The position numbers were made by a program, and so were the translations under genes. This document shows, piece by piece, positions 4,148-36,714 of a DNA stretch of 64,000 nucleotides; position 1 is the stretch's first letter; every line of letters starts with the position of its first letter. The stretch covers positions 32,543 through 96,542 of the forward strand of contig CAYWRH010000001.1 of assembly GCA_964460435.1 (NCBI GenBank), written 5' to 3'. The notes beneath the pieces are model-generated. The model worked only from the letters and a program-made list of their open reading frames with translations. It searched no databases and was not told where the DNA came from. This DNA is from an uncultured Desulfatiglans sp. (GTDB lineage Bacteria > Desulfobacterota > DSM-4660 > Desulfatiglandales > HGW-15).

Positions 4148-4160
4148 AAGGGGTTTAAAA

Positions 4161-6403: not shown

Positions 6404-6829
6404 TTGGTGGAGTTAGAGATCAAAAGGAACTGCTCCGATGTAGGTTGGAAGACAGTATCGGAAACTTTGAAACTCCTTGGAATGGCATACTACGATCCCG
6501 ATATTCACAGAAGAGCATTTGAAGCGAGCCATACTACCGTGTTTGTCTATATTGATAGCCGGTTGATCGGTTTTGGACGGGCGATTTCTGATGGTGTCTA
6601 CCAGGCAGCCATCTATGACGTAGCTGTCATACCTGAATTCCAGAAGAAGGGCATCGGAACTAAAATAATGAAGAATATTTTGGATGCTCTTCCTCAATGC
6701 AATATAATTTTGTATGCATCACCTGGGAAAGAAGGATTTTACAGAACACTTGGATTGCGAAAAATGCGGACGGGAATGGCACGTTTTATAAGGGCGGAAG
6801 ATATGAATGCAAAAGGCTTCACTGAGTGA
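6404..6829 (+). CDS. GNAT family N-acetyltransferase
   Basis: 141 aa with the acetyl-CoA binding motif VIPEFQKKGIGTKIMKNILDAL. TTG start as given by the ORF track. Confidence 0.75.
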   Translation: MVELEIKRNCSDVGWKTVSETLKLLGMAYYDPDIHRRAFEASHTTVFVYIDSRLIGFGRAISDGVYQAAIYDVAVIPEFQKKGIGTKIMKNILDALPQCNIILYASPGKEGFYRTLGLRKMRTGMARFIRAEDMNAKGFTE

Positions 6830-6904
6830 ATGGGCCAGTGTGTACAAGTAGGACAGTCATGTTTTATGTTTGCTTAATACAAATAAAATAAAAGGGGCTT
6901 AAGA

Positions 6905-19265: not shown

Positions 19266-19271
19266 TCCCTT

Positions 19272-20222
19272 TTAATCCTCCATTTTCATGTCAGCAAGTA
19301 TCTCCATCTCCTTAATGCTTACAGGAAATTGCATTCTAAGGCCATCAAGCCATTTTGTATACATTAATTCTCTGTTTTCCACTGTAATTTTTGACTCTAT
19401 CTCCTTTATTGATTCAGGAAAGGGCCTTATCCCCTCTTCTCTTACAGAAACGACCTTGAAAACATGAAAACCATAAGGGGATTCAATTATTTTACTTATC
19501 TCTCCCTGCTTCAGTGAAAAGACCGATTTTTCTATGGTCTCTTCCAGCTCCCCTGATGCAAACCACCCCAGGAGACCTCCATTTTTTGAATCAGGGGCTA
19601 TAGAAAATCTTTTTGCCAGTTCAGCCATATCCTCCCCCTTGTTTAGAAGGGCAAGGACATTGTTCATCTCCTCCCTGCTCTTTGTGACAATCTGCCTTAT
19701 CTCAAGCCTGCGTGGCTCTCTGAACTCTTCCAGGTGGCTTTCATAATAGGCCTTTACCTCATCCAGCGTTACCCCCTTAATATCAGCAAGGGCTGTGTCA
19801 GTAATCTTTTTTATAAGCAGTTCATCATGCATATTTTTTTTCCATTCATTGATATCTATATATCTTGTGAGAAGCACCTCATTCAGCAAATCACCGGGGT
19901 AATCATGTCTGACCTCATTGACCGCTGCCTGAAGCTCCTCCTCTGATATTGTTATCCCGTTTCTCCTGCCATATTCAAGGATCAGGTTTTTTTCTACGAT
20001 CCTGTTTAATATAGATTTTATCCCCTCCTTAATCTCCCCAGCGGATAACCCCATATCATACTTGATTCGCTCTATCTCATGCAGAACCTCTCTCTTGCTG
20101 ATGGCCCTCTCGCCAATGGTGATTACCGCCTCTTCATCCTTTGGCCTGACCCCGCAAGAAAATATGAGGAGCAGAGAAGATATGATAAGGATATAATAGA
20201 TTTTCAAATACAGATTAAACAC
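19272..20222 (-). CDS. Parvulin-type peptidyl-prolyl isomerase (PrsA/PpiD-like), probably membrane- or lipid-anchored
   Basis: Hydrophobic N-terminus ending in ..FSCG. PpiC domain: MAELAKRFSIAPDSKNGGLLGWF...SPYGFHVFKV. Confidence 0.75.
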   Translation of the reverse strand: MFNLYLKIYYILIISSLLLIFSCGVRPKDEEAVITIGERAISKREVLHEIERIKYDMGLSAGEIKEGIKSILNRIVEKNLILEYGRRNGITISEEELQAAVNEVRHDYPGDLLNEVLLTRYIDINEWKKNMHDELLIKKITDTALADIKGVTLDEVKAYYESHLEEFREPRRLEIRQIVTKSREEMNNVLALLNKGEDMAELAKRFSIAPDSKNGGLLGWFASGELEETIEKSVFSLKQGEISKIIESPYGFHVFKVVSVREEGIRPFPESIKEIESKITVENRELMYTKWLDGLRMQFPVSIKEMEILADMKMED

Positions 20223-20702: not shown

Positions 20703-21635
20703 ATGGGTGAAAGAGACGGGGATATTTCTATAAGTATCCAAAAGGTCAGACATATTTATAAAGGAGGAAACGCTGCCATCAACGGGATAAGCATGGATAT
20801 CCATACCGGGCTTTTCGGTCTGCTGGGCCCCAACGGTGCAGGAAAAAGCACGCTCATGCGCATTATATGCAGTCTGCTTGTACCCACAGAGGGGCGTGTT
20901 ATTGTGGGGGGATTTGATGTGGTAAAGGAGCGCAGGCATTTAAGGAGGCTTCTGGGGTATCTTCCGCAGGATTTCAATGCATGGCGTCTCCACAGGGTGG
21001 AAGAGGTGCTTGGAACACTCGCTACCCTTTCAGGCCTTGAGAATAACACGGAAAGAAAAGAGAGGGTATTTGAAATCCTTGAACTTGTAGGATTAAAGGA
21101 TGTCTCCCACAGAAAGGTAAAAAGCCTATCCGGCGGTATGGTAAGAAGGCTCGGCGTGGCCCAGTCCCTTATACATAATCCTAAGATACTGATTGTTGAT
21201 GAACCCACAGTCGGGCTTGACCCTGAGGAGCGTATACATTTCAGGCAGCTCATGGCGAAACTCGGCAAAGAGAGGATCATTATCCTTTCCACCCACATTG
21301 TAGGTGACCTTGGGAGCGGGTGTCATGACCTCGCCCTTATTGACCGGGGCAGGCTGGAGTTCAGGGGGAGCCCTGAAAAACTGATAGAAAAGGCAAAGGG
21401 GTTTGTATTTGAGATGCATCTTGAAGGCACAAGGAGTGAAGTCGCTGAACAGTATGAGATCGTATCCCAGGAACAGAGACTGGGGCGAACCATCATCAGG
21501 GCAGTATCCAGGATGGGCGAGATCCCTGATGGCGCAGTCCAGGTTGATAACCCCACACTTGAGGAGGCATATCTCGCCTTTATGGCCTCAAACAGCGTGA
21601 AACAGGCGGTAAAGGGAGGGGAGGCGCAGTCATGA
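20703..21635 (+). CDS. ABC transporter ATP-binding protein (ABC-2 subfamily type)
   Basis: Walker A GPNGAGKST, Q-loop YLPQD, signature LSGGMVRR, Walker B ILIVDEPTVGLD, H-loop STHIV. ATGA overlap with the next gene. Confidence 0.9.
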   Translation: MGERDGDISISIQKVRHIYKGGNAAINGISMDIHTGLFGLLGPNGAGKSTLMRIICSLLVPTEGRVIVGGFDVVKERRHLRRLLGYLPQDFNAWRLHRVEEVLGTLATLSGLENNTERKERVFEILELVGLKDVSHRKVKSLSGGMVRRLGVAQSLIHNPKILIVDEPTVGLDPEERIHFRQLMAKLGKERIIILSTHIVGDLGSGCHDLALIDRGRLEFRGSPEKLIEKAKGFVFEMHLEGTRSEVAEQYEIVSQEQRLGRTIIRAVSRMGEIPDGAVQVDNPTLEEAYLAFMASNSVKQAVKGGEAQS

Positions 21636-24600
21636 TGAACATAAAATCAATTCTGTCCATAGTGCGGGCTGAAACACTTGTAATAAGACGTCTGGCCAGA
21701 TACTGGCTGTTTCTCTCATTTTCATACCTGTTTGTGTTAATTGCATTTATCTATTACTCTGCCCTGCACGGCCTTTATTCATCGCATTCCGCATCAGTGG
21801 GGTTAATAAGCCCCAGGTTTCTTGTGAGTTCAATAGCAGGCGTGTTCTACCTCGCTATCTACTCTATAGGCGTGATCTTTCTTGCATTTGATGTGAGGGC
21901 AAGGGATCTGAGGGAAAGGATGCATGAGGTGCTTGATTCGCGTCCTTACACCAACATGGAGCTTGTTATCGGCAGATTTTTGGGTGTCCTGATACCCGCA
22001 TGGGTGCCCATGCTTCTCCTGATAGTGCTGATACAGCTATTGGGATTTCTGCTAAAGACCAGCGGTGTGCCTATTGGTGAGCCTGCCCAGATGAGATCCC
22101 TCCTTTCATTTGTGTTTCTGATAGGGCTACCCTCTTTCGCATTTATAATCTCGATTGTCTTTCTTGTAACCCTTCTTGTAAGGAACAGGCTGGTTTCCTC
22201 TATCATACTTGTGCTGTTGATAGCTGCAAGCTATGCAGGGATGTATTTTTTACCTAACTACAAGGCGATGGTTTTTGATTTTCTTGGGTTAATGCAGTCA
22301 GGATATCCATCAGACATTACAGCATCATTAATGCCTCTTACGGGCCTCATACACCGCGCAGCAATACTCCTTGCCTCCCTTGGAATGCTTGGCATATGTG
22401 CGGCAGTGCACCCCCGCCTTGATGATGGATCACGCTGGAAAACAGGTTTTACAGGCGCAATAATCGTAGCAGTAGCAGCGGTTATAATAGGTGGCATATT
22501 TGCAGGCAACCTGAATGATATAAAAGAGCAGGAGAGATGGCTTAGGGCACAAATGGAATACCCAAATGGCCCTGCGCCTGATATTACAAAAATCACAGGC
22601 AGGGTGCTAATAACACCAGGAAAGGATCTTAACCTTGAAATAAAGATTACATTCAAGGCCCCTGAAGAGGGTGAGATAAAAAATGCCCTGTTTACCCTTA
22701 ATCCTGGACAGAGGATAGTGGAACTCCTTGACAGTTCTGGTAAACCATTAAGCTATAAGCATGAAGAGGGCATACTTGATATTACCCTGCCCAATGCCCT
22801 GTCGCCGGGTGAGGAGGCTGTAATAGGTCTCAAAACAAAGGGCATACCGAATAAACACTTTGCATATCTTAAAAGCTCTATAAACCCCCTTAAGCTTGAG
22901 AGAAAAAATTCAAATACTATCCTTCTTGGTAATGAAAACTATCTGTTTGACAGTAATTTTGTTGCCCTTATGCCTGCAATCCGGTGGCTGCCAATGTCAG
23001 GTGTGGAGAACAGCATGGAAAAACAGCAGAACAACCGCGTGGATTTTTTCAATGTTGATCTTACTGTTGGCGTGCCAAAGGGGTGGCTTGTCGCAGGGCC
23101 TGGAAGGCGCAACAGGGCAGGTGAGGATAATAGATTTGACCTTTACCGGTTTGCTCCCCCCTCTGTTGTGCCGGAGGTGGCCCTTCTCGCATCTGAGTAT
23201 GAGAGCCGTTCATATGAAACTGAAGGCATACTCATGGAGCTTCTTGTCCACAAAAAACATATGAAAAACCTTGATGTGCTGGCTGACACAAAAGAGAAGA
23301 TCAGGGAATATATTGACACAAGGATAAAGGATGCAAAGGAGGCAGGGCTAACCTACCCCTATGACGGCCTTACCCTTGTGGAGGCGCCGACTGTTTTACG
23401 GACATATGGCGGCGGGTGGCGTCTTGATACGGTTCAGTCAATGCCCGGCATTATGCTCCTAAAGGAGCTCTCTTTGCCCACGGCCAGGTTTGACTCCGCA
23501 TTCAGGAACCCTGACAGCTTTAAAAATAGGGAGGGTGGCATAGTCAAGGCCAAGTGGGACAGGCTTCAAACCTATTTCAAACAGGATTTTTCAGGGGGAA
23601 ATATATTTACAGGCACAGCAAGGAACTTCTTCCTGTTCCAGACATCTGCAGAGGGGCCAGAAGGCATGCCTGTCAATTTTGTAATGGATACCCTGTCATC
23701 TCTTGTGCTGGCAGACACAAAGGGGTATTTTTCAGCCCATATATTTGCAGAGGGGAATTCAGTAAATGAGATCATTCAGAATGTGCTTGTAAGCTATTTC
23801 CAGCTCAGAAACGCAGGGATACAGGACACCATCCTGAACTCTACAATACGCACAAGGACATCTCGCCCTGCAGTGTGGGAAAAGGCGCTTGAGGCATCAC
23901 TAAAGGACACAGACCCCTGGAAAGATCCATCTGATACGGTAGATTACCTTATATTAAAGGGTTATGCAGTTGCAGACTCCATATATAAGACCCTTGGAAG
24001 GGAAAAGACAGCCGCATTTCTTGCATCCGTAAGAAGGAATCATACAGGAGGCCAGTTTACGGTTTCAGACATGAAAAGCGCCTTAAAAGGGCAGGGTTAT
24101 GACATGGATGCATCCCTTGGCGACTGGCTGGGCAGCACAGGGCTTCCGGGTTTTGTTGTGCAGGATGCAAAGGGATACCGTGTAGCAGATGATGAAAACG
24201 GAAGCCCCAGGTATCAGCTCCTTTTTACAGTAAGAAATGATGAGCCTGTTCCGGGGGCCTTTAACTTTGCCTATTATTATACAGCGCAGGATCAGAACCC
24301 TGAGTTGATATCAGGTGAGACTATTAACCTCGCAGGGAGGCATGCTATCCAGTACGGCACAATAGTATCAAGGCTTCCTTCCATGTATTTTCTTGCCCCT
24401 GTGCTCTCCTATAACAGAGGCACCTTTGAATTTAAGATGGAAAATATTAATTCTGACAAGATAGTCGATGCGGAGATTATTGAAGGGGTCAGAGATATCC
24501 CCTGGGCGCTCCCGGCTCCCTCATCAATAGTGGTGGATGACCTGGACGAGGGGTTCACTATTGTTAATGAAAAAGAGGAAGGTAAAGGGCTCAGGGTTAA

Positions 24601-25072
24601 GGCGAAGGGAAAAAGCAGGGACACGAAACTGGATCAGGGCTTGCCCTATACCTCCAGTAATGTATTGCCCGGAGGATTCGGCCTGCCAGCAGAATGGACA
24701 CGCATAAGCAATGGCATGAGCTATGGAAAATATAGGCATACAGCCGCTTTTATCAAGAAGGGCGAGGGGGCAAAAAAGGCTCTTTTCAGCGCTGAGTTGC
24801 CACAGGCAGGCGCATGGGACATGGAGATTTTTATACCCATGAAGAATATCTTTCCTAACAGGAAATGGGGTACATGGCATGGTGTTGTGACAGATAAAAA
24901 TGGAGATAAACATCAGGTTGAGTTTGATTCAAAGGCAGGAGGCGAAGGGTGGAACCTGGCAGGTAAATATGATTTGCCACAGGGTAAATGCACCCTGGAA
25001 CTCTCTGATCTGACCGATGGGGATATGGTGGTGGCAGATGCCATACGATGGACACCTTCTGCCGGAAAATGA
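21632..25072 (+). CDS. Large membrane protein: ABC-2-type permease-like N-terminal TM domain (~300 aa) fused to an ~850-aa extracytoplasmic domain
   Basis: 1146 aa. The N-terminus has six or more hydrophobic helices and an ABC-2-like DVRARDLRERMHEVLDSRPY segment. The remainder is hydrophilic with no HExxH. The extreme C-terminus (...LSDLTDGDMVVADAIRW) is reminiscent of golvesin-type beta-sandwich domains, but this recall is weak. Confidence 0.6.
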   Translation: MMNIKSILSIVRAETLVIRRLARYWLFLSFSYLFVLIAFIYYSALHGLYSSHSASVGLISPRFLVSSIAGVFYLAIYSIGVIFLAFDVRARDLRERMHEVLDSRPYTNMELVIGRFLGVLIPAWVPMLLLIVLIQLLGFLLKTSGVPIGEPAQMRSLLSFVFLIGLPSFAFIISIVFLVTLLVRNRLVSSIILVLLIAASYAGMYFLPNYKAMVFDFLGLMQSGYPSDITASLMPLTGLIHRAAILLASLGMLGICAAVHPRLDDGSRWKTGFTGAIIVAVAAVIIGGIFAGNLNDIKEQERWLRAQMEYPNGPAPDITKITGRVLITPGKDLNLEIKITFKAPEEGEIKNALFTLNPGQRIVELLDSSGKPLSYKHEEGILDITLPNALSPGEEAVIGLKTKGIPNKHFAYLKSSINPLKLERKNSNTILLGNENYLFDSNFVALMPAIRWLPMSGVENSMEKQQNNRVDFFNVDLTVGVPKGWLVAGPGRRNRAGEDNRFDLYRFAPPSVVPEVALLASEYESRSYETEGILMELLVHKKHMKNLDVLADTKEKIREYIDTRIKDAKEAGLTYPYDGLTLVEAPTVLRTYGGGWRLDTVQSMPGIMLLKELSLPTARFDSAFRNPDSFKNREGGIVKAKWDRLQTYFKQDFSGGNIFTGTARNFFLFQTSAEGPEGMPVNFVMDTLSSLVLADTKGYFSAHIFAEGNSVNEIIQNVLVSYFQLRNAGIQDTILNSTIRTRTSRPAVWEKALEASLKDTDPWKDPSDTVDYLILKGYAVADSIYKTLGREKTAAFLASVRRNHTGGQFTVSDMKSALKGQGYDMDASLGDWLGSTGLPGFVVQDAKGYRVADDENGSPRYQLLFTVRNDEPVPGAFNFAYYYTAQDQNPELISGETINLAGRHAIQYGTIVSRLPSMYFLAPVLSYNRGTFEFKMENINSDKIVDAEIIEGVRDIPWALPAPSSIVVDDLDEGFTIVNEKEEGKGLRVKAKGKSRDTKLDQGLPYTSSNVLPGGFGLPAEWTRISNGMSYGKYRHTAAFIKKGEGAKKALFSAELPQAGAWDMEIFIPMKNIFPNRKWGTWHGVVTDKNGDKHQVEFDSKAGGEGWNLAGKYDLPQGKCTLELSDLTDGDMVVADAIRWTPSAGK

Positions 25073-25085: not shown

Positions 25086-26186
25086 ATGAAAGAGAATTGT
25101 AGATTCAGGATACTGGTAATTGTTTGCATCGCCCTTTCAGGTTTTCTTTCAGGGTGTTCACGTGAGGAGAGCAGTGATGACAAGATAGAATTTCTTGTGC
25201 CTGTAACCGTTACAAAGGTGGGCAAAATGGATGTTGAAGAGAGGATAACAGCCACAGGCACCCTTAGAACCAGCAAGGTTGCAAGGCTTGAGGTGGAGAC
25301 TGGCGGTATCCTTGAATTCCTGACAAACAGGGATGGTAAACGGTATCGCGAAGGAGACAGCGTAAAGGCAGGCGATGTGATTGCCCGTATCACTGGTGAT
25401 GATGTGCGCCTTGCAGCCAGAAAGGATGCAACCCTCCAGAGGTATGAGACAGCAAAGGATGAATATGAATCAACAAAAAAACTCTATGATGACGGGTTTA
25501 AAAGCAAGTCCGAGCTGCTCAAGATGCAGTCAAGCCTGGAGGATGCAAGGGTAGATTATGAAAAGAGCCTGAATTCGGAAAAACGCAGCAAGCTCACCAC
25601 GCCAATAGATGGCATTATCCTGAGGCTTGCAAGGGACAGGGATAACCAGAACCAGCCACTTGCAGTCGGTCAGTATGTGAGCCCGGGCTTTGAGGTGGCC
25701 CGCATTGCCCCCACAGATACCCTTATTGCAGATGTAGACCTTGTTGCCCAGGACGTGGCAAGGGTATCTGAGGGTCTTGCTGCAAGGGTTAAGCATTATG
25801 CATGGAAGGATGAAGAGTTTGAAGGCAAGGTGACAAGGCTTGATCCTGTTATAGACCCTGTCACAAGGGCTCTCAAGGCAGAGGTAGAGGTTATTAATCA
25901 TGAGGGTAAACTCAGGCCAGGCATGTTTGTAGAGGTAACCATTATAAAGGAGCAGAGAAAGAATGTCCCGTGTATCCCCCGTGAGGCTGTAGTTAACAAA
26001 GGGGGAAAGTGGGTAGTATTTGTCTTAAACGGACAGAGGGTTAATAAAAAAGAGGTGGTATTAGGGCTGGGTGATGACAATATTGTGGAAATCCGGTCAG
26101 GGCTCTCAGAGGGGGAAAGGGTTGTCACTAGGGGGCTCGAAACACTTGATGATCAGGTACGCGTCCGCGTGACAGGAACCAATTAA
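25086..26186 (+). CDS. Efflux RND periplasmic adaptor (MFP) lipoprotein
   Basis: Lipobox LSGC. Lipoyl halves (KAGDVIARI / LTTPIDGII), a coiled-coil hairpin, and beta-barrel and membrane-proximal domains typical of the AcrA/HlyD_D23 family. Confidence 0.85.
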   Translation: MKENCRFRILVIVCIALSGFLSGCSREESSDDKIEFLVPVTVTKVGKMDVEERITATGTLRTSKVARLEVETGGILEFLTNRDGKRYREGDSVKAGDVIARITGDDVRLAARKDATLQRYETAKDEYESTKKLYDDGFKSKSELLKMQSSLEDARVDYEKSLNSEKRSKLTTPIDGIILRLARDRDNQNQPLAVGQYVSPGFEVARIAPTDTLIADVDLVAQDVARVSEGLAARVKHYAWKDEEFEGKVTRLDPVIDPVTRALKAEVEVINHEGKLRPGMFVEVTIIKEQRKNVPCIPREAVVNKGGKWVVFVLNGQRVNKKEVVLGLGDDNIVEIRSGLSEGERVVTRGLETLDDQVRVRVTGTN

Positions 26187-26190
26187 TATC

Positions 26191-29100
26191 ATGTTAGCGC
26201 TAGCACGACTTGCAACAAGACGTCCCGTGGCCGTGACAGTGGTGGCAGCAGCCATTATCATGCTCGGGTGGATCTCCCTTAAGGGGCTCCCCATTGACCT
26301 TTTGCCTGATATTAAGAGCCCTACCATACTTGTCTCGGTAAAATCCGGTGACAGGCCACCCACAGAGATGGAGAGGCTCTATGGCAAACAGGTGGAACAG
26401 AGGCTCTTTACAGTTAAAGGAATAAGGTCAATTAACCAGGTAGCCAGGGCCGGAAACCTTATAGCAAGGGTCACCTTTGAGTGGGATGCGGACATGGATA
26501 TGGCCCTTGTGGATATCCAGAAGGCGATTGCATCCATATCAGCGGATGAGGATGTGGATGAGGTGGTGGTAAGGAGGCAGGACCCGCGCGAGCTTCCGGT
26601 TATCTCTATAGGCCTTGTTGCAAAAGAGGCGCTCCCCGGCCTTACAGAACTCAAGAAGATTGCCGAAAGGATGATCGCCCCAGCATTTGAACAGCTTGAG
26701 GGTGTGGCAGAGGTGAGGGTAACAGGCGGTCGCGAGGATGAAATAAGAATTATTGCTGACCGCTACCTTATGGAGGCCCATTCCATAACAATGGCCGAGC
26801 TTGAAAACCGTATAAGGGCGGCCAACATCGACATAAGCGCAGGCACCCTTGAGGAGGGTGATAATGTATATCTGGTAAGGGGGATATCCAGATTTAATAA
26901 TAGTGAAGATATTGCCCGTGTTGTGGTGAAGTATGACCGTGATTCAAGTGAAAAATCCATACCTGTCAGGGTTGGCGATATTGCGAAGGTCATAGTCACT
27001 GACAAGAAGATCAGCGACCTTGTGCTTGTGAATGGCAAAGAGGGTGTAAGCCTCTCCATATACAAGGAGGCAGGGGCAAATACAGTAAAGGTATCCCGTG
27101 ATGTTAAGAAGGCACTGACAGAACTTAATAAAGAATTAAAGAATATGGAGTTCAGCGTGGTAAGTGATGAGGCCGCCCTGGTGGAAGATGCAATAAGTGA
27201 TGTGGAGACCTCTGCTGTAATTGGCATTATCCTGGCGGTTATTGTGCTCTGGTATTTCTTAAGGTCATTAAGCTCAACTGTTATAGTGGCATCTGCCATA
27301 CCGGTATCTCTTATGGCAACCCTTTTTGCCATGCATTATGCAGGGCAGAGCCTTAACCTTATGACCCTTGGCGGTATGGCCCTGGGCGCAGGCATGCTTG
27401 TGGATAATGCCATTGTAGTAATAGAGAGTATCTTCCGCAGAAAGGAGGCAGGGGATTCACCGGAAGAAGCTGCTGCAAATGGCACAGCGGTTGTTGCAGG
27501 GGCGATTATCTCCAGCACCCTTACCACAATCGTGGTGTTTCTGCCTGTGCTCTTTATCAGGGGGCTTGCAGCAAGGCTTGTGTCAGGCATCTCATTTACT
27601 GTCATAGTCTCACTTGTTGCCTCTCTAGGTGTGGCGGTGTTTCTGATACCGGCCCTGGCAAAATGGTTTCTGCCAAAGGATACCATTAAGGAGGTAAACC
27701 CTGGAAAGACAAAGATAGAGGCCATTGTTACAGGTCTCCTCAAACATCCATATCTGGTGGTTGCAGTATCCTTTATAATTGTGGCCGTATCCGTATTCTC
27801 TCTTATGGGGCTTAAGAGCGAGCTTATGGCCCCTAATGACCCGAGGCAGTTTTCCCTCCGCATCACCGGTGTTCCGGGGCAGAGGGTGGAGGCTACAAAG
27901 AATATGGTAGCCGTGATAGAGGATATAATAAGGCAGGCCGCAGGTGATGACCTCAAGGCGATCCTCTCTGAGGTAGGCAGACTCCCGGAAGATGACCATT
28001 TTATACGTGAAGAGCTTACAGGTGAAAACAGGGCCAGGATACTTGTAAACCTTTCAACAGATGGGAAAACAGCGGGTCAGGTAGTAAAGGCTGCCTCTCC
28101 AGTGATTTCCGGGCTTAAAAATATCGAGGTCTCATGGGAGCTTGGCACATCAGCCATAGCAAGGGCCATTGGCAGTACCGGCCCTCCCATACAGGTGGAG
28201 ATATCCGGGCACTCTGCCACAGACCTAAGAAAGGCCGCAGATGCTGTGTTATCAAAACTAACGACACTGCCTGAGCTGTGGAATGTCCGCTCTTCATTTG
28301 AAGGGGGTGCGCCCGAGCTTCATATCGTGCTGAACCGCACCCTGTGTGACGGCCTTGGCGTTGATATAGAGATGGTTTCAAGGGTGATTGAATCGGCCCT
28401 GGATGGCAAGGTTGTGACCGAGATGACAACAGGAGATGAAGAGAAAGATGTTGTTTTGAAGGTTGAACAGGGCGCTGATATAGGGCTTAAATCCATACCC
28501 TTTACCACCTCAAAAGGGGAGCGCCTTACCATAGGGGATATCGCAGATTTTGTTAATGTAGATGGGGCGCTTGAGATTTTTAGGCGTGACCAGAAAAGGG
28601 TGGCAATGGTGACTGCGAGGATCAGGGAGGGGGTGAAATACCCTTTGGCAAAGGCTGCTACAGAATCGGCGATTAACAGCATGGATCTCTCCCCCGGCCT
28701 TAGTATGAGGCTTACCGGTGAAGAGGAGGAGAGGGCCAAGACCTTTTCGGAACTCGAATGGGCAGGCATAATATCTGTTATTCTTGTCTTCATGGTTTTA
28801 GCCGGCACCTTTGAATCCTTTCTTCATCCATTCACTGTGCTCTCCTCTATACCCTTTGCCCTCATAGGCGTGGCGGCTGTCCTATCGCCGTCAGGAAGGC
28901 CTATAGGGATCATGGAGGCATTAGGCCTTATAGTGCTCACAGGCATTGCTGTAAATGATGCGATACTTATGGTGCAGACAGCAGGCCAGTTAATTAAGGA
29001 GGGTGCTGAAAGAAAAGCGGCGCTGGCAAGGGCAGCAGCCATCAGGCTCAGGCCTATCATAATGACATCTGCCACGACCATACTTGCCCTTTTTCCCCTT

Positions 29101-29253
29101 GCCCTGGGTATAGGTGAAGCGGCCCAGCTAAGGGCACCTATGGCCATAACAATAATAGGGGGCATCACTGCATCTACGCTTACCTCCCTGTTTGTAATAC
29201 CATGCCTCTATCTGATACTCGACAAACTGCGATTCAAACGGGCCAGGGTATGA
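26191..29253 (+). CDS. RND efflux permease (AcrB/AcrD/AcrF family), subunit 1
   Basis: 1020 aa with a 12-TM, two-large-loop architecture. N-terminus RRPVAVTVVAAAIIMLGWISLKGLPIDLLPD, TM4 GMLVDNAIVVIES, and a C-terminal RLRPIIMTSATTILALFPLAL motif. Confidence 0.9.
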   Translation: MLALARLATRRPVAVTVVAAAIIMLGWISLKGLPIDLLPDIKSPTILVSVKSGDRPPTEMERLYGKQVEQRLFTVKGIRSINQVARAGNLIARVTFEWDADMDMALVDIQKAIASISADEDVDEVVVRRQDPRELPVISIGLVAKEALPGLTELKKIAERMIAPAFEQLEGVAEVRVTGGREDEIRIIADRYLMEAHSITMAELENRIRAANIDISAGTLEEGDNVYLVRGISRFNNSEDIARVVVKYDRDSSEKSIPVRVGDIAKVIVTDKKISDLVLVNGKEGVSLSIYKEAGANTVKVSRDVKKALTELNKELKNMEFSVVSDEAALVEDAISDVETSAVIGIILAVIVLWYFLRSLSSTVIVASAIPVSLMATLFAMHYAGQSLNLMTLGGMALGAGMLVDNAIVVIESIFRRKEAGDSPEEAAANGTAVVAGAIISSTLTTIVVFLPVLFIRGLAARLVSGISFTVIVSLVASLGVAVFLIPALAKWFLPKDTIKEVNPGKTKIEAIVTGLLKHPYLVVAVSFIIVAVSVFSLMGLKSELMAPNDPRQFSLRITGVPGQRVEATKNMVAVIEDIIRQAAGDDLKAILSEVGRLPEDDHFIREELTGENRARILVNLSTDGKTAGQVVKAASPVISGLKNIEVSWELGTSAIARAIGSTGPPIQVEISGHSATDLRKAADAVLSKLTTLPELWNVRSSFEGGAPELHIVLNRTLCDGLGVDIEMVSRVIESALDGKVVTEMTTGDEEKDVVLKVEQGADIGLKSIPFTTSKGERLTIGDIADFVNVDGALEIFRRDQKRVAMVTARIREGVKYPLAKAATESAINSMDLSPGLSMRLTGEEEERAKTFSELEWAGIISVILVFMVLAGTFESFLHPFTVLSSIPFALIGVAAVLSPSGRPIGIMEALGLIVLTGIAVNDAILMVQTAGQLIKEGAERKAALARAAAIRLRPIIMTSATTILALFPLALGIGEAAQLRAPMAITIIGGITASTLTSLFVIPCLYLILDKLRFKRARV

Positions 29254-32200
29254 GCTGGTATAATTTTCCTGTAAAAAGGCCTGTGGCCACGGCCATGTTT
29301 TTCTGCGCCATCCTGCTTCTGGGTCTGGTCGGTTGGGAGAGGATACCTGTGGAGCTTATCCCTGATCTTGAGGGTGACTCCATCCATATTGATTTTGTAA
29401 GGCTTAACAGCGAACCAGAGGTGGTTGAGCGCGAAATACTGATCCCCTTAGAGGAGAAGGCCTCAGCGCTTGAGGGGATAAAGGAGACATTCGGAACTGT
29501 TAATGGCTCGAACGGCTCCCTTGATATTAATTTTGAACCGGGCACCGATATCAAGATCAGGCAGCTTGAGCTCCAGCGGATTGCTGCTGAGCTTAACAGG
29601 GAGCAGCCAAGGGGTTCATATATAAATGTCGGCGGCCAGGACTTTTCAATGATAAGCCGGATCGTGATGAGCATACAGGTCCTTGGCGGTGATGACACAG
29701 ACAGTTTAAGGAGTTTTGTCGAGGAGAATATTGAGTCACGCATTGCAGCAGTAAATGGTGTGGCCAATGTTTTCGTGATGGGCGGCGCACCAGAAGAGAT
29801 AACCATAAGGGTTGACCCTGATAAATGCTCTGCCCTTGGCATATCACCACAGGAGGTATCGACAACGCTTTCACGCTCTGTTCAGAGACTAAAATTCCTG
29901 GGCGGTCTTGAAGACAGCACAATACGTCAGCCGGTCATCCTGGATGGCAGGCCTAAAGGGGTATATGAGCTGGGAGAGTTAAGGATAAGCCCTGAAAGGT
30001 CTGTGCTTATACGTCATGTTGCTGAAGTGTCAAAGGGCACAGGCAGAAAAGAGAGCATATACAGGGTAAACAGCAAGCCATCAGTTGCCCTCCTGATATT
30101 CAAGGAGGAGGGGGCAAACCTTGTCAGACTGGGTGAGGAGGTCAGGAGGCGTCTTAATGAACTCAAAAAGGAGTTTAAACCATATGGCATTGATTTTTTA
30201 ACAGGGTTTGATGCAGCAAAAACAGTTGAGAAACAGATAGACAGGCTCAAGAAACTTGCAATAAGCGGATTTATCATCTCTATTGTTATACTCTTTCTTT
30301 TTATAAAAAGGCTAAGGGCAGTTACTGTTGTTGCCATTGCCGTGCCTGTGAGCCTTTTATCTTCAATGGCCTTTCTCTATACCGGCGGATACACGCTCAA
30401 TCTTGTTACGCTCATAGGGCTTGCTGTTGGAGTAGGCATGCTTGTAGATAACAGCATAGTTGTCTATGAGGCAGCACAGCGCAGGCTTGAAAGGGGTGTT
30501 GACCCGGACAGGGCAGCAGGGGATGGCGTAAGGATAACCTTTAAGGCGATCCTTGCATCTACGGTGACAAATGCCATTGTCTTTCTGCCTGTATTCTTTC
30601 TGGTAGAGGATAGTATGTTGAGGGGGGTGATGAAGCTCCTTGCCGCTGCTATACTTATTCCTTTAGGGTCATCACTTCTTGTTGCCGTAGGGCTAGTTCC
30701 TCTTTTAGCCAGAAGATTTGCAGCGCCTGCTGCCATGGATCGGTTAAGAGCCTTAAAAAGGCGCAGGGAACTATACATGGGTCTCCCTTTACCTGACAGG
30801 TGGCGTGATCTGTTTACAGGTCTTTTAAAAAATTCCATGCGGAACCCTGCAACCTGGATCATGGTTATAACAGCGGCCCTGTTTTTTACAATAATTGTAG
30901 GGCTGCCCTGGGTTATGATCGGATCAAGGAACCAGGAGTCTCAGGAGGCAGATGAGATACAGCTCGCAATTGATGTCCCTGCAGGGGATTCCCTTGAGTC
31001 AGTAAGCAGGGACTTCTATTCACTTGAACAGGAGGCTCTTAAAATAGAGGGTGTAGAAGCTGTTGAGAGCATGATACAGGAAAAGAACAGCACCCTTACC
31101 ATCCGATTTGCTGAAAAGGGGGTGCGTCCCCCTGAACTTACTGCCCCTCTTGTGAGAGAAAAGATCAAACAGGCTGCAAAAAAGTTAAGGGGATTTGATG
31201 TCACTTCACAAAACTCAGCCGGACAGGGCAGGGGCAGGCGGGGGTCTGGCGCAGCAACCCTTATGGGTCAGGGGAAATCTGAGATTATTATATCAGGTGC
31301 TGATTCAAGGAAATTGATGGACATAGCCCTTTCATTAAAGGAGCGGCTTGAATCCATCCCTGAAATCAGTGAGGTTCAGGAATCATCAAGGCCTGGTCAG
31401 GATGAGATACACATAATACCTGATCACAAGATACTGAACAGCCTGGGGCTCTTCTCGGATCAGGTGTTTATCATGCTGAGGCTGGCGCTCTCCAGGGAAG
31501 GCACACAGATGAGCGCCGGAACAATAGAGGCAGATGGTAAGGAGATCCCGATTGTTATCAGGAGCAATGAAACCGGATCAAATAACCTGACCCGGCGAAT
31601 GGAGGATCTCAGGATAAATACCTCTGCCGGTGTAATTACCCTTGGGTACATATCTGATGCCCGCAAGATGCCCCCGCCAAATGTGATAGAACACCATAAT
31701 GGAAGGCGTGAGATGAGGGTTTACTACTCATTTAAGAGAGATGCCCCATCCACAGGGCCGGCCCGTGAGGCCCTGGATAAAGAGATATTGAGCATGATAG
31801 AGTCTGTGCCCCTGCCTGAAGGTTATGTTATCAATCCTACAGAGGATGACGAGACAGCGAGCATGGCAAGGCGCATCCTTATCCCTATTGTTCTATTACT
31901 CTTTGCAGTACTGGCCATTACCTTTGAATCCCTCACCATGCCAATCCTTGTGCTGCTCGCAGCCCCCCTTACCATTATCGGGGCTGTATGGGCGCTCTGT
32001 TTTGCAGGCATGCCCCTGTTAAGCCCTATGGCCATAGCAGGCATGGTAGTTCTTATGGGGATCATGGTAAACCCCGCGATTCTGCTTGTGGACAGGATGC
32101 AGGAAAGGGTGCTTGGAAGCAGGTGGTCTGCAGGCGCTGCTGCCCTTGCAGCGGTGCGTGAACGGTCAAGGCCGGTACTGATGACAACCGCCACAACCAT

Positions 32201-34004
32201 TGCAGGTTTGTGGCCCCTTGCCATCTCTACAGGGGCAGAGAATGAGATGTGGCCCCCATTTGCTGTTGTGATAATGGGGGGGCTTGTTACATCGGGGCTC
32301 CTCATTCTTCTTGTTATCCCGATAGGGTTTGTCTTCTTAAGCAGGATAGACAGGATATTCGGAAGGCTTGGGCCATGGATAACCGTATCATGGATATGCG
32401 CCACCGCTATTGTCATGACGCCTCTCATATATTTTGAACAGATAACCACGCTTACATGGCAGGTAACAACCACTATTCTGGTTGCATCGGTATTCTTAGG
32501 TATATTTGTGCTCATCTTCCGCAAACCCGAACTGCCTCAACCCTCTGAGGGTGTTGAGGTGGAGGTAAAATATATCCACAAGATATATGGCAGGCCCGGC
32601 CCCATTGGCAAGGCCATCAGGGCAGGGGAACATTTTGCCATAAAGGTGCTTAACCGGGGCGGAAAACCCTTTTTGCCCTCTGATGTTATCCAGCCCATGA
32701 TAACAGTTATAGTGCTTCTTATGGGGGTGTCATATCTTGCATTTTCACTGAGCACCATCTTCTGGCGGATCGTCTTTTCATTTGCCGGGGCTGTCTTACT
32801 CATAAGGCTGCTCTCCCTTATACGAAAGATACGCGGCAAATGTGATGAAAAGGGGAATACCTTGCCGGGCGGGATTGAAAACATGCTCGCCACTATTATT
32901 CCATGGATTGTCCTCTGCCTTAACGGGATATTCTATTATCTGGCGCCTGTCTCTGTTGGCAAACACCCGCGTATGGCCCTGTTTCCCATGCTGCTTATTG
33001 CCCTGCTGATAATTTTTATTCAGGCAGGCAGGAAGAGCGCAAAGGATCTTGCAACAGGCAAAATAAAAGAAAAATATGATGCTGGTTTTATTTATCGTAC
33101 AAAACTCATCTGGCGAGAGATGTGTAGGTTGCTTTTTGGTCTTGATCTGCCAAGGGATGAGCATCAGGCCCTTAAGAATATTAACTTCAGGGCAGAAAGG
33201 GGCATGATAGGTATACTTGGCCCCAATGGCGCCGGTAAAACAACACTGTTAAGGGCCATAGCGGGAATACTTGATCCGACTGCCGGTGTAATTACAATGG
33301 GCGGGGTACCCCTTAAAAAGATCAGGAGATTTCTTGCCAACTGGGTAGGGTATCTGCCACAGGATTTTGGCCTGCCCAAAAACCTTACAGGCAGGGAATA
33401 CCTTGAATACTATGCCCTGTTATACAGGATAGATGAAAGGGACAAGATTATTGAGAGGGTCAACTTCCTCCTTACCGAGGTGGGGCTGGCTGAACAGGCG
33501 GACAAAAGGATCGGGGATTATTCAGGCGGCATGAGGCAGCGTGTGGCGGTTGCTCGCACCCTGTTAAGGCTTCCGCCTGTGATCATCGTGGATGAACCGA
33601 CAGTGGGGCTTGACCCAAAGGAGCGCATCAGGTTTAGAAACCTCCTCTCAAGGCTTGCTGAGACAAGGATAGTGCTCTTTTCCACCCATGTTGTTGAGGA
33701 TGTTGCTGTTGCATGTGAACGGGTGATAGTGCTTTCAAAGGGGAAGAAGGTCTTTGATGGTGAGCCAGGCCTGCTCGCATCTGTAGCTGATGGAAAGACA
33801 TGGGAGATGAGGATCAGGGAGGGTGAAGAGAATAATCTGCCGGAGAATGCCATTGTGGTGGATCAGGCGCCCGAGGCTGATGGAACATACCATGTCAGGA
33901 TACTCTGTCATGATGCCCCTGCGAAGGACGCAAAGGCTGTTGTCCCCAATCTTCAGGATGGCTACCTTGAGCTTGTGGGGACGAGAAGGAAGAGGGTAGT
34001 TTGA
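29250..34004 (+). CDS. Fusion protein: complete RND efflux permease + 6 additional TM helices + ABC ATPase domain
   Basis: I prefer ATG 29250 (ATGA overlap with the upstream stop), giving 1584 aa. Residues 1 to ~1030 are AcrB-like (KRPVATAMFFCAILLLGLVGWERIPVELIPD; MLVDNSIVVYE; RSRPVLMTTATTIAGLWPLAI). The C-terminal ~270 aa is an ABC NBD with GPNGAGKTT (~33.22 kb), YLPQDF, YSGGMRQR, IIVDEPTVGLD and STHVV. Confidence 0.85.
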   Translation: MSWYNFPVKRPVATAMFFCAILLLGLVGWERIPVELIPDLEGDSIHIDFVRLNSEPEVVEREILIPLEEKASALEGIKETFGTVNGSNGSLDINFEPGTDIKIRQLELQRIAAELNREQPRGSYINVGGQDFSMISRIVMSIQVLGGDDTDSLRSFVEENIESRIAAVNGVANVFVMGGAPEEITIRVDPDKCSALGISPQEVSTTLSRSVQRLKFLGGLEDSTIRQPVILDGRPKGVYELGELRISPERSVLIRHVAEVSKGTGRKESIYRVNSKPSVALLIFKEEGANLVRLGEEVRRRLNELKKEFKPYGIDFLTGFDAAKTVEKQIDRLKKLAISGFIISIVILFLFIKRLRAVTVVAIAVPVSLLSSMAFLYTGGYTLNLVTLIGLAVGVGMLVDNSIVVYEAAQRRLERGVDPDRAAGDGVRITFKAILASTVTNAIVFLPVFFLVEDSMLRGVMKLLAAAILIPLGSSLLVAVGLVPLLARRFAAPAAMDRLRALKRRRELYMGLPLPDRWRDLFTGLLKNSMRNPATWIMVITAALFFTIIVGLPWVMIGSRNQESQEADEIQLAIDVPAGDSLESVSRDFYSLEQEALKIEGVEAVESMIQEKNSTLTIRFAEKGVRPPELTAPLVREKIKQAAKKLRGFDVTSQNSAGQGRGRRGSGAATLMGQGKSEIIISGADSRKLMDIALSLKERLESIPEISEVQESSRPGQDEIHIIPDHKILNSLGLFSDQVFIMLRLALSREGTQMSAGTIEADGKEIPIVIRSNETGSNNLTRRMEDLRINTSAGVITLGYISDARKMPPPNVIEHHNGRREMRVYYSFKRDAPSTGPAREALDKEILSMIESVPLPEGYVINPTEDDETASMARRILIPIVLLLFAVLAITFESLTMPILVLLAAPLTIIGAVWALCFAGMPLLSPMAIAGMVVLMGIMVNPAILLVDRMQERVLGSRWSAGAAALAAVRERSRPVLMTTATTIAGLWPLAISTGAENEMWPPFAVVIMGGLVTSGLLILLVIPIGFVFLSRIDRIFGRLGPWITVSWICATAIVMTPLIYFEQITTLTWQVTTTILVASVFLGIFVLIFRKPELPQPSEGVEVEVKYIHKIYGRPGPIGKAIRAGEHFAIKVLNRGGKPFLPSDVIQPMITVIVLLMGVSYLAFSLSTIFWRIVFSFAGAVLLIRLLSLIRKIRGKCDEKGNTLPGGIENMLATIIPWIVLCLNGIFYYLAPVSVGKHPRMALFPMLLIALLIIFIQAGRKSAKDLATGKIKEKYDAGFIYRTKLIWREMCRLLFGLDLPRDEHQALKNINFRAERGMIGILGPNGAGKTTLLRAIAGILDPTAGVITMGGVPLKKIRRFLANWVGYLPQDFGLPKNLTGREYLEYYALLYRIDERDKIIERVNFLLTEVGLAEQADKRIGDYSGGMRQRVAVARTLLRLPPVIIVDEPTVGLDPKERIRFRNLLSRLAETRIVLFSTHVVEDVAVACERVIVLSKGKKVFDGEPGLLASVADGKTWEMRIREGEENNLPENAIVVDQAPEADGTYHVRILCHDAPAKDAKAVVPNLQDGYLELVGTRRKRVV

Positions 34005-34005
34005 A

Positions 34006-34162
34006 ATTCAAGATTCAAGATTGAAGATTCAAAATTCGAAATTTGGAGCTCGACTTTAAGAGCTCTAAGTTCAATGCTTATTTAAATAAAGCCGTCATTC
34101 CCGCGAAGGCGGGAATCCATTGTTATTAAAGACCAGCAGGCTCCCACCTTCACGGGAATGAC
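34006..34162. repeat. Intergenic repeat block (short tandem repeats + REP-like hairpins)
   Basis: Degenerate tandem GATTCAA(G/A) units lie at 34006-34043. Hairpin GTCATTCCCGC-gaa-GCGGGAATCC lies at 34094-34118. Its GTCATTCCCG (34094-34103) also pairs with the distal CGGGAATGAC (34153-34162). Confidence 0.55.
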
Positions 34163-34200
34163 AGGCTAAATATGTTGAATTACATATATGGATTAAAGGT

Positions 34201-34896
34201 ATGTTAGATAAACTTAAAACCTATTTGAGTATTATGATCTACTCAGGCCGCCTAATGGCAGGTAAAAGGTTCTGGATAATAATATTTCTGCCCCTTATCT
34301 GGCCTGTTTTACAGGCCCTGTTTATCTGGATCGGATGGAGTGATGCAAAATTTAACCCCGCTGATGCACATATGCTTATTTCCATTCCCCTCTCAATTGT
34401 TGCGATGGGGCTTGGGTTACGCATCATAGCAGGGGAGATAGACAGCAGGACACTTGAGATCGCCTACACAGTGCCAGGCGGGTGCCACCGGGTATGGCTC
34501 GCCAAGATAGCAACCTGTTTCTGTCTGCTCATTGCAAGCGAGGCGCTGCTTGCCCTCTTTACAATGGTATTTCTCATATCTGTTTCAATCGGGACATTCT
34601 ATGGAGCGCTCCAGGCCGCCATGTTCTGCCTTGTTATGGGTATGGGGCTTTCAGCATTTTTCAGGAGCGAGATAACAGGGGCAATGGCAACTATTCTCTT
34701 TTTTGCATTAGGGGTTATGGCAAGTTCATTCCGTATATCGCCATTTTTTAACCCCCTTGCATTGAGCCCTTCTGAAAAGGCACAGGCTGTTACCTATGCA
34801 ATACAGAACAGGATATTTTTTATAATTTTTATTGTGGCTATAACACTGCTCACCTTCCTGCGTGTGGAAAGAAGGGAAAAGATGCTGAGAGATTAA
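34201..34896 (+). CDS. ABC-2-type permease-like integral membrane protein
   Basis: 231 aa with about 6 TM helices. It contains the ABC-2-like segment GEIDSRTLEIAYTVPGGCHRVWLAKI. Confidence 0.5.
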   Translation: MLDKLKTYLSIMIYSGRLMAGKRFWIIIFLPLIWPVLQALFIWIGWSDAKFNPADAHMLISIPLSIVAMGLGLRIIAGEIDSRTLEIAYTVPGGCHRVWLAKIATCFCLLIASEALLALFTMVFLISVSIGTFYGALQAAMFCLVMGMGLSAFFRSEITGAMATILFFALGVMASSFRISPFFNPLALSPSEKAQAVTYAIQNRIFFIIFIVAITLLTFLRVERREKMLRD

Positions 34897-35015: not shown

Positions 35016-35064
35016 AAATCTGTTGATAACTTGAATCATTTTGTTCTCATGGAGGTATGTTCAA

Positions 35065-36714
35065 ATGGTGAAAAAATTGTTGTTTAAAAAATTGATAACC
35101 TTATATATTACATTTTTAATCAGCCTGTTCATGCTTGGTGGCTGCACATATGTGGATAAGGTTAAAGAGATAAATTCAACCCCTGCAATTATGGTCATCC
35201 CTGCTGAAAAGGTTCAGCAGATAGACATGATCGAGCTGAAAAAGGCCGATGATGAGGCGCCTGTGAAGCCTGAGACAGCTGAACCTGAAAAGGCAGAGTA
35301 TGCACTTTCTCTTGAGGAGTGCCGTGCCCTTATGCTTGAGAATAATCTTGATCTGAGGGTGCAGCTTATTAGCCCTGCTATTGAAAAAGAAAATGTAAAG
35401 CAGGCAGAGGCAAGCAAGTTTGAAGCCACCTTTACCGGTAACACAAGTTATTCTAAAGATAATACCCCGACAGATTCGCTTCTGGTAGGCTCCAGCAGTG
35501 AGAGGGTAAGTATCAACCTTGGTGTAGATATCCCCTTAAGCACTGGCGGAACAGTCTCCTTTGATCTGGCGGATAACCTGAATAAGACCAATTCAACATG
35601 GGCAACATTGAACCCCTCATATAATTCAGGTTTAAGCGCCTCCATCAGTCAGCCCCTTTTAAAAAATGCAGGCCGCAGGGCATTCACTCATTCTATCCGC
35701 ATTGCCCAGTATAACAGCAGCATTACCGATCTGAGGACAAAGCTTGGCGCCATGCGCATAATAGCTGATGCAGACAGGGCATACTGGAATCTTTATGCTG
35801 CAAGAAAGATGCTTGAGGTGAGAAAACAGCAGTATGACCTTGCAAAGGCCACCCTTGATGAGACAGAACGTTTTGTTGAGGTGGGCGTAAAACCCAGGAT
35901 AGAGATAATAAGGACCAAGAGAGATCTTGCTGACAAACTCACAGCAATAATAGATGCGGAAAATATGGTTAAAGAGAGGGAGAGGGATCTTAAACGAATG
36001 CTCAATAAAAAGGGGCTTGGTATGGAGACAAAGACTGTCCTGATCCCATCCTCTTTGCCTGACCCTGTGCGCTATGAATTTGACAGAGATAATATGGTGA
36101 AAAATGCCCTTGAAAACCGCATGGAACTCCTTGAACTTGAGCTTCAGCTTGAAATGGACAGCATGACTATAGAGTATAACCGCAACCAGACGCTTCCTGA
36201 CCTCTCATTTGAGTACAGGTATAATATAGATGGGCTTGGCGCTGACAGGAGCGATTCATATGATATGCTTACAGATAATGATTATCATGACCACCAGGTC
36301 GGCTTGCGTATGAATATACCTATTGGCAATAAAAGGGCCAAAAGCGAACTCAGGAAGTCCATTTATCAGCGTGCAAAGGACCTTTCCTCAAAAGAGAGTA
36401 AAGAGGCTGAGATCAAAAACGATGTCTTGAATAAGATAGATAAAGTGGAGGCAAAATGGCAGAGCATACTGGCGAGCAGGCAGAACACACTACTCTCTGA
36501 TGAACAGTACAGGGCGGAAAAACGTCAGTATGAACTGGGGCTTGTGAGCTCAAGGGATGTAATGGATGCGCAGACCAACCTTGCAGCAGCCCAGAGCGCA
36601 GAGATTACTGCCTTGACAGATTATCAGACAGCCCTTATTGATCTTGCCTATGCCACAGGCACGCTTCTTGGCGCAGCCAAGGTGGAGTGGGAGCCGGTTG
36701 TGCCTGCGGAATAG
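35065..36714 (+). CDS. TolC-family outer membrane efflux protein (lipoprotein-type OMF)
   Basis: I prefer ATG 35065 (MVKKLLFKKLITLYITFLISLFMLGGC, lipobox LGGC). The two OEP repeats show typical motifs: LSLEECRALMLENNLDLR and ADRAYWNLYAARKMLEV. Confidence 0.85.
   Translation: MVKKLLFKKLITLYITFLISLFMLGGCTYVDKVKEINSTPAIMVIPAEKVQQIDMIELKKADDEAPVKPETAEPEKAEYALSLEECRALMLENNLDLRVQLISPAIEKENVKQAEASKFEATFTGNTSYSKDNTPTDSLLVGSSSERVSINLGVDIPLSTGGTVSFDLADNLNKTNSTWATLNPSYNSGLSASISQPLLKNAGRRAFTHSIRIAQYNSSITDLRTKLGAMRIIADADRAYWNLYAARKMLEVRKQQYDLAKATLDETERFVEVGVKPRIEIIRTKRDLADKLTAIIDAENMVKERERDLKRMLNKKGLGMETKTVLIPSSLPDPVRYEFDRDNMVKNALENRMELLELELQLEMDSMTIEYNRNQTLPDLSFEYRYNIDGLGADRSDSYDMLTDNDYHDHQVGLRMNIPIGNKRAKSELRKSIYQRAKDLSSKESKEAEIKNDVLNKIDKVEAKWQSILASRQNTLLSDEQYRAEKRQYELGLVSSRDVMDAQTNLAAAQSAEITALTDYQTALIDLAYATGTLLGAAKVEWEPVVPAE

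Follow-up and report, generated by a model that had tools for sequence, protein, structure and literature searches.

In an uncultured Desulfatiglans sp., a single gene encodes a protein in which a complete resistance-nodulation-division (RND) permease is covalently joined to an ATP-binding cassette (ABC) nucleotide-binding domain (NBD), and this RND::ABC fusion is a genuine, evolutionarily conserved single polypeptide. The gene occupies positions 29250..34004 (+) of the window, that is, of the whole 64,000-nucleotide (nt) stretch of contig CAYWRH010000001.1 that was analysed. Its product of 1,584 amino acids (aa) consists, in order, of the RND permease, a tether of six transmembrane (TM) helices, a split NBD, and a C-terminal β domain. 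In textbook accounts, tripartite efflux is powered either by RND pumps, which are proton-driven, or by ABC pumps, which are ATP-driven, and the two are studied separately. The fusion and the genes around it are best regarded as a tripartite efflux system made from known modules, joined in a previously uncharacterised way. No description of an RND::ABC fusion was found by full-text search of about 8 million papers and preprints (subscription journals, TCDB, and the InterPro architecture tables lay outside its scope), in keeping with a preliminary description of this DNA, which knew of no characterised transporter of this architecture. Public annotation of the fusion is automatic only, with names such as ‘AcrB/ABC-type multidrug transport system ATPase subunit’ and ‘efflux RND transporter permease subunit’.

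The open reading frame (ORF) extends over 29202..34004 (+), with no stop anywhere within the frame. Because homologues begin with MSWYNFPV, the true start is the ATG at 29250. In the sequence ATGA, this ATG overlaps the TGA that ends the RND gene before it (26191-29253), which bears out the translational coupling that the preliminary description had proposed. Pfam places ACR_tran (PF00873) on residues 4-1030 of the product, covering profile positions 2-1020 of 1021 (E 4e-149), and ABC_tran (PF00005) on residues 1308-1451 of the same polypeptide (E 5.5e-29). The presence of a complete RND permease and an ABC ATPase domain in one polypeptide, which had been read from the translation, is therefore confirmed by both profiles within one ORF.

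The architecture recurs widely and in several bacterial phyla. A homologue search covered 5.8 billion protein clusters (90% identity), and among the best 120 matches listed were at least 119 clusters of 1,543-1,607 aa that have both Pfam domains and align over 94-100% of the query, at identities between 51% and 92%. The identical fusion protein is encoded on 10 contigs, drawn from JGI, Logan, and NCBI assemblies of different samples. Source labels of the homologues include Thermodesulfobacteriota, Desulfobacteraceae, Acidobacteria, and Thermoanaerobaculales, and one fusion homologue sits on a 6.48-Mb contig (locus L004). A missed stop, a frameshift, or a chimeric assembly joining an RND gene to an ABC gene has nothing to recommend it but the prior that odd metagenomic ORFs sometimes are artefacts. 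Against such an error stand the identical ORF in assemblies of different samples, the parallel divergence of amino acid sequence across the junction in the homologue clusters, and the same architecture on the complete 6.48-Mb contig and in Acidobacteriota. The recurrence of the architecture leads us to reject this explanation, the probability of which is vanishingly small. The earlier argument that the ORF is not an assembly or frameshift artefact is thus upheld, and the fusion does recur in other genomes.

The RND permease module (29250..32339, +; residues 1-1030) is HAE1/MdtB-like, covers the full Pfam profile, and, by its ACR_tran match, follows the 12-TM architecture with two periplasmic loops from end to end. 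Of the 12 TM segments expected, hydropathy picks up 10, with the large loops at residues 30-330 and 556-875, and RND permease models of NCBIfam span residues 1-1036. Past RND TM12, Kyte-Doolittle hydropathy detects six further hydrophobic segments (residues 1044-62, 1072-90, 1153-71, 1173-91, 1213-31, and 1242-60), in agreement with the two and then four extra helices noted previously. Helices 13 and 14 (32379..32519, +; residues 1044-1062 and 1072-1090) are also helices in an AlphaFold2 (AF2) model. They lie at a junction conserved across the family, with FGRLGPW after TM12 and TWQ between the two helices. Helices 15-18 (32706..33029, +; residues 1153-1260), likewise seen in both hydropathy and AF2, form a four-TM insertion inside the loop between strands β1 and β2 of the NBD. 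The NBD core from β2 onward occupies 33162..33794 (+), and it is followed by a C-terminal β-rich domain (33795..34001, +; residues ~1516-1584) delineated by AF2 strands. Lys and Arg residues in the loops of the fusion number 28 on the predicted cytoplasmic side vs 2 on the periplasmic side. The fused NBD is therefore placed in the cytoplasm, on the same side as the RND C-terminus, as the even number of extra helices had suggested.

All ATPase motifs of the fused NBD are present: GPNGAGK1330TT (Walker A), LPQ1371 (Q-loop), YSGGMRQR (signature, residues 1424-1431, with S1425GG), IIVD1448E1449PTVGLD (Walker B), and STH1480 (H-loop). In an alignment of 83 sequences, the Walker A, Q-loop, signature, Walker B with its catalytic Glu, D-loop, and H-loop are invariant. 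The fold is nevertheless non-contiguous, as β1 and the A-loop do not directly precede β2. The segment VEVEVKYIHKIYG (32553..32591, +; residues 1102-1114), which lies between helices 14 and 15, is the displaced β1/A-loop, split off by the four-helix membrane insertion. About 190 residues, among them four TM helices, separate it from β2 (residue 1307) downstream. To our knowledge, this is the first known example of an ABC NBD interrupted by transmembrane helices.

Several lines of evidence identify the displaced strand. In the AF2 model (residues 1005-1584, built on the 83-sequence alignment; mean pLDDT 82.6, pTM 0.70), residues 1104-1113 form a 10-residue β-strand with pLDDT ~90, and the other strands of at least three residues are confined to the NBD and the C-terminal domain. 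Since the model has no other strands elsewhere, this strand would have to pair with the NBD/C-terminal sheet. When residues 1099-1117 were joined straight to residue 1305 onward in a splice test against NBD profiles, the alignments to GldA, PQQ-ABC, NodI, PhnC, FtsE, and LptB reached profile positions 2-5. The gain was 2-7 bits in most NBD models that cover β1 (for GldA, from 172.6 to 179.5). As a candidate for the true β1, the native segment that directly precedes β2, LLFGLDLPRDEH, was rejected, because no profile aligns LLFGLDLPRDEH, whereas the distant VEVEVKYIHKIYG was aligned. Moreover, VEVEVKYIHKIYG aligns with the β1/A-loop ISIQKVRHIYKG of a paralogous free ATPase encoded in the same gene cassette. 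Y1113 of the A-loop, together with G1117 and P1118, is invariant in the 83 sequences, and the β1/A-loop motif is kept in the most divergent members of the family (37-43% identity overall). The upstream displacement of a first NBD strand, given previously as VEVKYIHKIYG, is thus supported by the model, the splice test, the paralogue, and conservation; the remainder of the NBD, with its C-terminal domain, is complete, as had also been described.

The class of the fused NBD points towards ABC-2-type exporters. Its top NCBIfam matches, all below their cutoffs, are GldA (167.7 bits vs 402) and DrrA (153.7 vs 312), with NodI also among them. Its best sequence relatives among solved structures are ABCA4/1/3/7, TM_0544, and NosF. 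In Foldseek comparisons, the NBD and C-terminal β domain match TM_1403 (4yer, TMt 0.77), NosF, and MetN-type ATPases.

The 270-residue linker between the RND permease and the NBD matches no Pfam family; its sequence is highly conserved, and it contains W, G, and P residues that are invariant. An exhaustive HMMER scan with the linker against 1.84 billion representative proteins returned only 40 clusters, and in every full-length member of these (1,528-1,601 aa) the linker lies at residues ~1030-1300, behind an RND permease. Four short matches were inspected; as their starts fall inside RND TM8-TM13, they are fragments and not free proteins. Within those 1.84 billion representatives, with four of the short matches inspected, no unfused module of linker plus NBD was found. 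A word-indexed search with the linker gave one fragment, though more than 100 full-length relatives (51-92% identity) were in that database. A limited sensitivity of that tool is the probable cause, and the near-empty result should not be taken for absence. The possibility that helices 13-18 are an ABC-2 TM domain is not supported. With hhalign, they showed no similarity to the small downstream permease or to the TM domain of the large cassette protein (both described below), in a comparison whose positive control, small permease vs large-protein TM domain, was itself marginal (E 0.022). Foldseek matches to ABCA proteins that span 565 columns had TM-scores no better than those of NBD-only matches. 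Among the metagenomic relatives, one protein of 648 aa (P0125) has a duplicated stretch in the linker and an Arg/Gly/Ala-rich, low-complexity C-terminal half past the Q-loop region. Unlike the ORF of the window, it looks like a frameshifted or mis-assembled copy.

The RND part is itself unusual. In the canonical relay of AcrB, protons are handled by D407/D408 of TM4, K940 of TM10, and R971/T978 of TM11. Residue-level alignment places D400-N401 in TM4 of the fusion where solved RND pumps have D407-D408, and N941-P942 in TM10 where they have K940-N941, while R972, R974, and T979 are retained in TM11. The fused RND thus departs from the canonical AcrB relay, with D408 and K940 both replaced by Asn at the sites encoded by 30438-30455 (+; V-D-N of TM4) and 32064-32084 (+; N-P of TM10). 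This pattern is near-invariant across the fusion family, from Desulfobacterota to Acidobacteriota. The unfused RND paralogue encoded directly upstream, here called RND1, has VDN in TM4 and VND in TM10, and hence the same D-N and K-to-N changes; the TM10 Asn is followed by Pro in the fusion and usually by Asp in the unfused paralogue. Because RND1 shares it, the non-canonical relay is a trait of the clade and not a consequence of fusion. From these residues, a non-canonical proton relay is possible in these pumps. The fused RND also fits no named NCBIfam subfamily: its best match is RND_permease_2 (423 bits vs a cutoff of 1,250), and it scores 228-260 bits against the MdtB/MdtC equivalogs, with cutoffs of 1,584-1,774 (MdtC, 260 vs 1,774). 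Its best full-length match among solved structures is MdtB (PDB 9lyq).

The fusion is gene five in a conserved cassette of six core genes, to which an outer membrane factor (OMF) gene is added at some loci. In a comparison of 7 distinct loci, the six core genes occur in the same order in the Acidobacteriota loci, down to the most divergent one (L021, linker identity 26%), and the identities of the cassette components drop in parallel from locus to locus. The preliminary description had rightly noted the upstream RND gene but overlooked the rest of this cassette, including the ABC-2-type permease downstream.

The first cassette gene (20703..21635, +) encodes a free ABC ATPase of 310 aa. It is of the DrrA/GldA class (best NCBIfam matches drrA and GldA, E 1e-55) and is 36% identical to the fused NBD. 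Its β1/A-loop ISIQKVRHIYKG is intact and, like its Walker A, signature, Walker B, and H-loop, conserved in 6 loci. The second gene (21632..25072, +) encodes a large ABC-2-type membrane protein of 1,146 aa, with an N-terminal ABC-2-type TM domain (~300 aa), a periplasmic part, and a C-terminal Golvesin_C domain (Pfam, carbohydrate-binding-like, E 1.9e-10). Its orthologues match Pfam ABC2_membrane_2/3. An AF2 model of this protein (pLDDT 86.7) gives its periplasmic region of about 850 residues an M1-aminopeptidase fold (Foldseek matches to IRAP, ERAP1, APN, and EryP, E ~1e-17). Neither HEXXH nor GXMEN was found in six orthologues, and the absence of both motifs rules out an active M1 peptidase. 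The M1-like region may instead be a pseudo-peptidase domain that binds substrate. The free ATPase and the large ABC-2 permease lie upstream of the fusion in 6 of the 7 distinct loci. A paralogue of the large protein (42% identity) is encoded outside any RND cassette (L023, 10001-13402), on the same 6.48-Mb contig as L004, so this protein family is not limited to the cassette.

The third gene (25086..26186, +) encodes a periplasmic adaptor, or membrane fusion protein (MFP), of 366 aa (NCBIfam RND_mfp TIGR01730, 184 bits vs a cutoff of 94.9; Pfam HlyD_D23), and it is found two genes upstream of the fusion in 6 of the 7 loci. RND1, the product of the fourth gene (26191..29253, +), has 1,020 aa, matches Pfam ACR_tran over its full length (E 5.9e-203), and is ~27% identical to the RND part of the fusion. 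Directly downstream of the fusion, the sixth gene (34201..34896, +) encodes a 231-aa ABC-2-like permease with six hydrophobic segments. Its match to Pfam ABC2_membrane_4 (E 8e-5, 23.1 bits) is below the cutoff of 27, and one orthologue weakly matches ABC2_membrane_2. This small permease comes next after the fusion in all 7 loci. A TolC-like OMF gene (35041..36714, +; Pfam OEP E 1.2e-47; NCBIfam TolC family) follows, for which the public gene call starts at 35065; it is present behind the cassette in Desulfobacterota-type loci only and not in Acidobacteriota ones. In one divergent lineage (L022, 43% identity; 1421-6870), the fusion and the small permease occur alone, with a divergently oriented gene upstream, and no MFP, second RND, free ATPase, or large permease was found beside the fusion on that 8-kb contig. 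The fusion and the small permease therefore represent the minimal conserved unit.

Some features of the surrounding DNA can be added. A 196-nt gap (34005-34200) separates the fusion from the small permease. It includes short, imperfect repeats in an AT-rich run, AAATTCAAGATTCAAGATTGAAGATTCAAAATTCGAAATTTGG, and, at 34097-34116, a hairpin rich in GC, ATTCCCGCGAAGGCGGGAAT, that lacks a clear T-tract. Acidobacteriota loci have no such gap; there, the ends of the two genes overlap by 4 nt. Upstream of the cassette, two tandem genes for SurA-like peptidyl-prolyl isomerases (18306-20222, -) are divergently oriented; the same pair is found at L004, and synteny in Desulfobacterota thus reaches past the cassette.

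Each module of the system has known counterparts. With MdtABC/MuxABC-type systems, of which E. coli MdtB2C is an example, the cassette shares two coupled RND paralogue genes behind one MFP gene, and an OMF gene in the operon. The closest full-length structure is of MdtB, and both MdtB and MdtC are among the NCBIfam matches. However, one of the paralogues here is longer by 554 residues, which make up six TM helices, an NBD, and a C-terminal domain; the relay reads D-N / N-(P or D) and not DD / K; a free ATPase and two ABC-2 permeases are encoded in the cassette as well; and the scores fall far under the MdtB and MdtC equivalog cutoffs. The resemblance to ABC-2/type-V exporters (DrrAB, NodIJ, GldAFG, NosDFY, and ABCA) lies in the families and solved structures that best match the NBD, the C-terminal domain that follows it, and the adjoining gene for a six-TM ABC-2-like permease. 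In contrast to those exporters, the NBD is not a free cytoplasmic subunit but sits behind an RND permease and six TM helices, its β1/A-loop is parted from its core by a four-TM insertion, and it scores below every equivalog cutoff.

Comparisons with other systems are more partial. Like MacAB-TolC, the cassette combines genes for an MFP and a TolC-like OMF with one for an inner-membrane component that hydrolyses ATP; only if ATP were to drive the RND cycle would the likeness extend to ATP energy being passed to a periplasmic porter-type domain. MacB, a type VII transporter, is a dimer without RND homology; its NBD is N-terminal, and of its four TM helices the first two flank a periplasmic Porter/Sabre domain. 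The fusion, unlike MacB, has the order RND, six TM helices, NBD; it contains a full 12-TM RND and a C-terminal NBD of probable ABC-2 class, and no Pfam match to MacB_PCD or FtsX was found in it. In Mycobacterium tuberculosis, export of phthiocerol dimycocerosate (PDIM) depends on an ABC-2 system, DrrABC, together with the RND protein MmpL7. There, as might be the case here, a system with a DrrA-class ATPase and an RND exporter jointly move one amphiphilic product across the envelope. DrrABC and MmpL7 are, however, separate proteins with no covalent link and no split NBD, and MmpL7 is of HAE2/MmpL type, without MFP or OMF. CFTR NBD1 offers a precedent for an insertion tolerated in the same β1-β2 loop, but its insert is a soluble one of ~30 residues, whereas that of the fusion comprises ~190 residues with four TM helices.

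As to function, we tentatively favour, on the basis of domain content and gene order, a type-V ABC exporter module tethered to an RND assembly, with export in two sequential stages. The fused NBD and the small downstream permease would together form the exporter module, and the 6-TM tether would keep it against the RND membrane domain. The RND assembly would probably be a heterotrimer of RND1 and the fusion, like MdtB2C, with fused and unfused subunits in a ratio of 2:1. Two fused subunits could then supply both NBDs that an ABC dimer needs. The substrate would be amphiphilic (a lipid, lipopeptide, or peptide), and in the first stage the ATP-driven module would move it out of the cytoplasm or inner leaflet and into the periplasm or outer leaflet. 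In the second, the RND porter domains would take up the substrate, which would then leave by way of the MFP and OMF. Co-assembly, stoichiometry, and hand-off would be secured by the covalent link. Consistent with this, the NBD is nearest to GldA, DrrA, NodI, ABCA, TM_0544, and NosF, an ABC-2-like permease follows it at every locus, and the MFP and second RND lie directly upstream, with ATGA coupling, while an OMF lies downstream.

A number of observations weigh against the tethered-exporter account. The pairing of NBD and permease, the 2:1 heterotrimer, and the substrate hand-off are all drawn from gene order; the small permease scores under its Pfam threshold; and that β1 pairs with the NBD sheet is deduced only from its assignment as a strand by DSSP and from the lack of strands elsewhere. 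The three-fold symmetry of an RND and the two-fold symmetry of an ABC dimer are a geometric mismatch, and the L022 fusion, with no adjacent RND1, MFP, or free ATPase, is a poor fit to an obligate heterotrimer. Both RND paralogues are without two of the canonical relay residues (D408 and K940, each replaced by N), so any coupling to the proton-motive force (PMF) is putative. Finally, the genes flanking the cassette, considered as a hint to the substrate, vary among loci and indicate none.

Other relationships between the two halves are conceivable. ATP might drive or assist the RND pump directly, the NBD cycle being mechanically coupled through helices 13-18 to the RND TM bundle, alone or with PMF, so that the proton relay is replaced or supplemented by a mechanotransmission logic like that of MacB. 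The NBD is indeed tied to RND TM12 by six helices that form a conserved module, one seen only in this fusion among the representatives scanned, and the β1-β2 insertion stitches it doubly into the membrane, an arrangement that would couple the two tightly. Every ATPase motif is invariant, and the AcrB residues D408 and K940 are absent (N401 and N941/P942) near-invariantly in the family. The same substitutions nevertheless mark unfused RND1 and are a clade feature, the TM4 Asp (D400) and the TM11 Arg and Thr are kept, and such a mechanism has no known precedent. A pure motor domain, moreover, would need no permease, but an ABC-2-like one always follows the fusion. We regard a directly ATP-driven or ATP-assisted RND as unlikely. 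The preliminary description had raised the ABC domain as an alternative source of power for the RND; an intact NBD is indeed fused to the pump, but the dedicated permease downstream, and the ATPase and ABC-2 permease upstream in most loci, make it likelier that the NBD is part of an exporter module than an RND driver.

Alternatively, the link might be a passive ‘Rosetta-stone’ fusion that serves only co-expression, co-localisation, or stoichiometry, with neither hand-off nor energetic coupling. Fusion of operon neighbours is common, both halves retain all features of autonomous transporters, and the large ABC-2 protein also occurs outside the RND context in the same genome. Yet a neutral fusion would not split its NBD by four TM helices, and the linker is both highly conserved, down to its invariant W, G, and P, and confined to this fusion, its C-terminal module not being found unfused among the representatives scanned. 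A purely passive link thus appears rather unlikely. We consider it improbable that the NBD transports nothing and is regulatory, sensing cytoplasmic ATP or a ligand and gating or assembling the RND pump, with the C-terminal domain acting like the regulatory domains of MalK, MetN, or ABCA. That domain does resemble the extra domains of TM_1403, NosF, MetN, and MalK-type NBDs, and the best sequence matches of the NBD are ABCA-type relatives with an R-domain. However, the catalytic Glu, H-loop, and signature are conserved throughout, which points to a hydrolytic cycle and not to mere binding, and the obligate downstream permease points to a transport module.

The cassette is widespread in anaerobic sediment lineages, including Desulfatiglans, Desulfobacteraceae, and Acidobacteriota, and its fusion shows that a physical partnership between RND and ABC components has been fixed by evolution. 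It poses a structural problem, that of reconciling a three-fold RND with a two-fold ABC dimer. It also provides a ready-made system in which to examine a long-discussed proposal, namely that RND pumps are supplied with substrates by inner-membrane transporters in a two-stage process. If it were true that ATP drives the RND cycle, the fusion would represent a new principle of energy coupling, a third besides those of RND pumps (PMF) and of MacB/HlyB (ATP).

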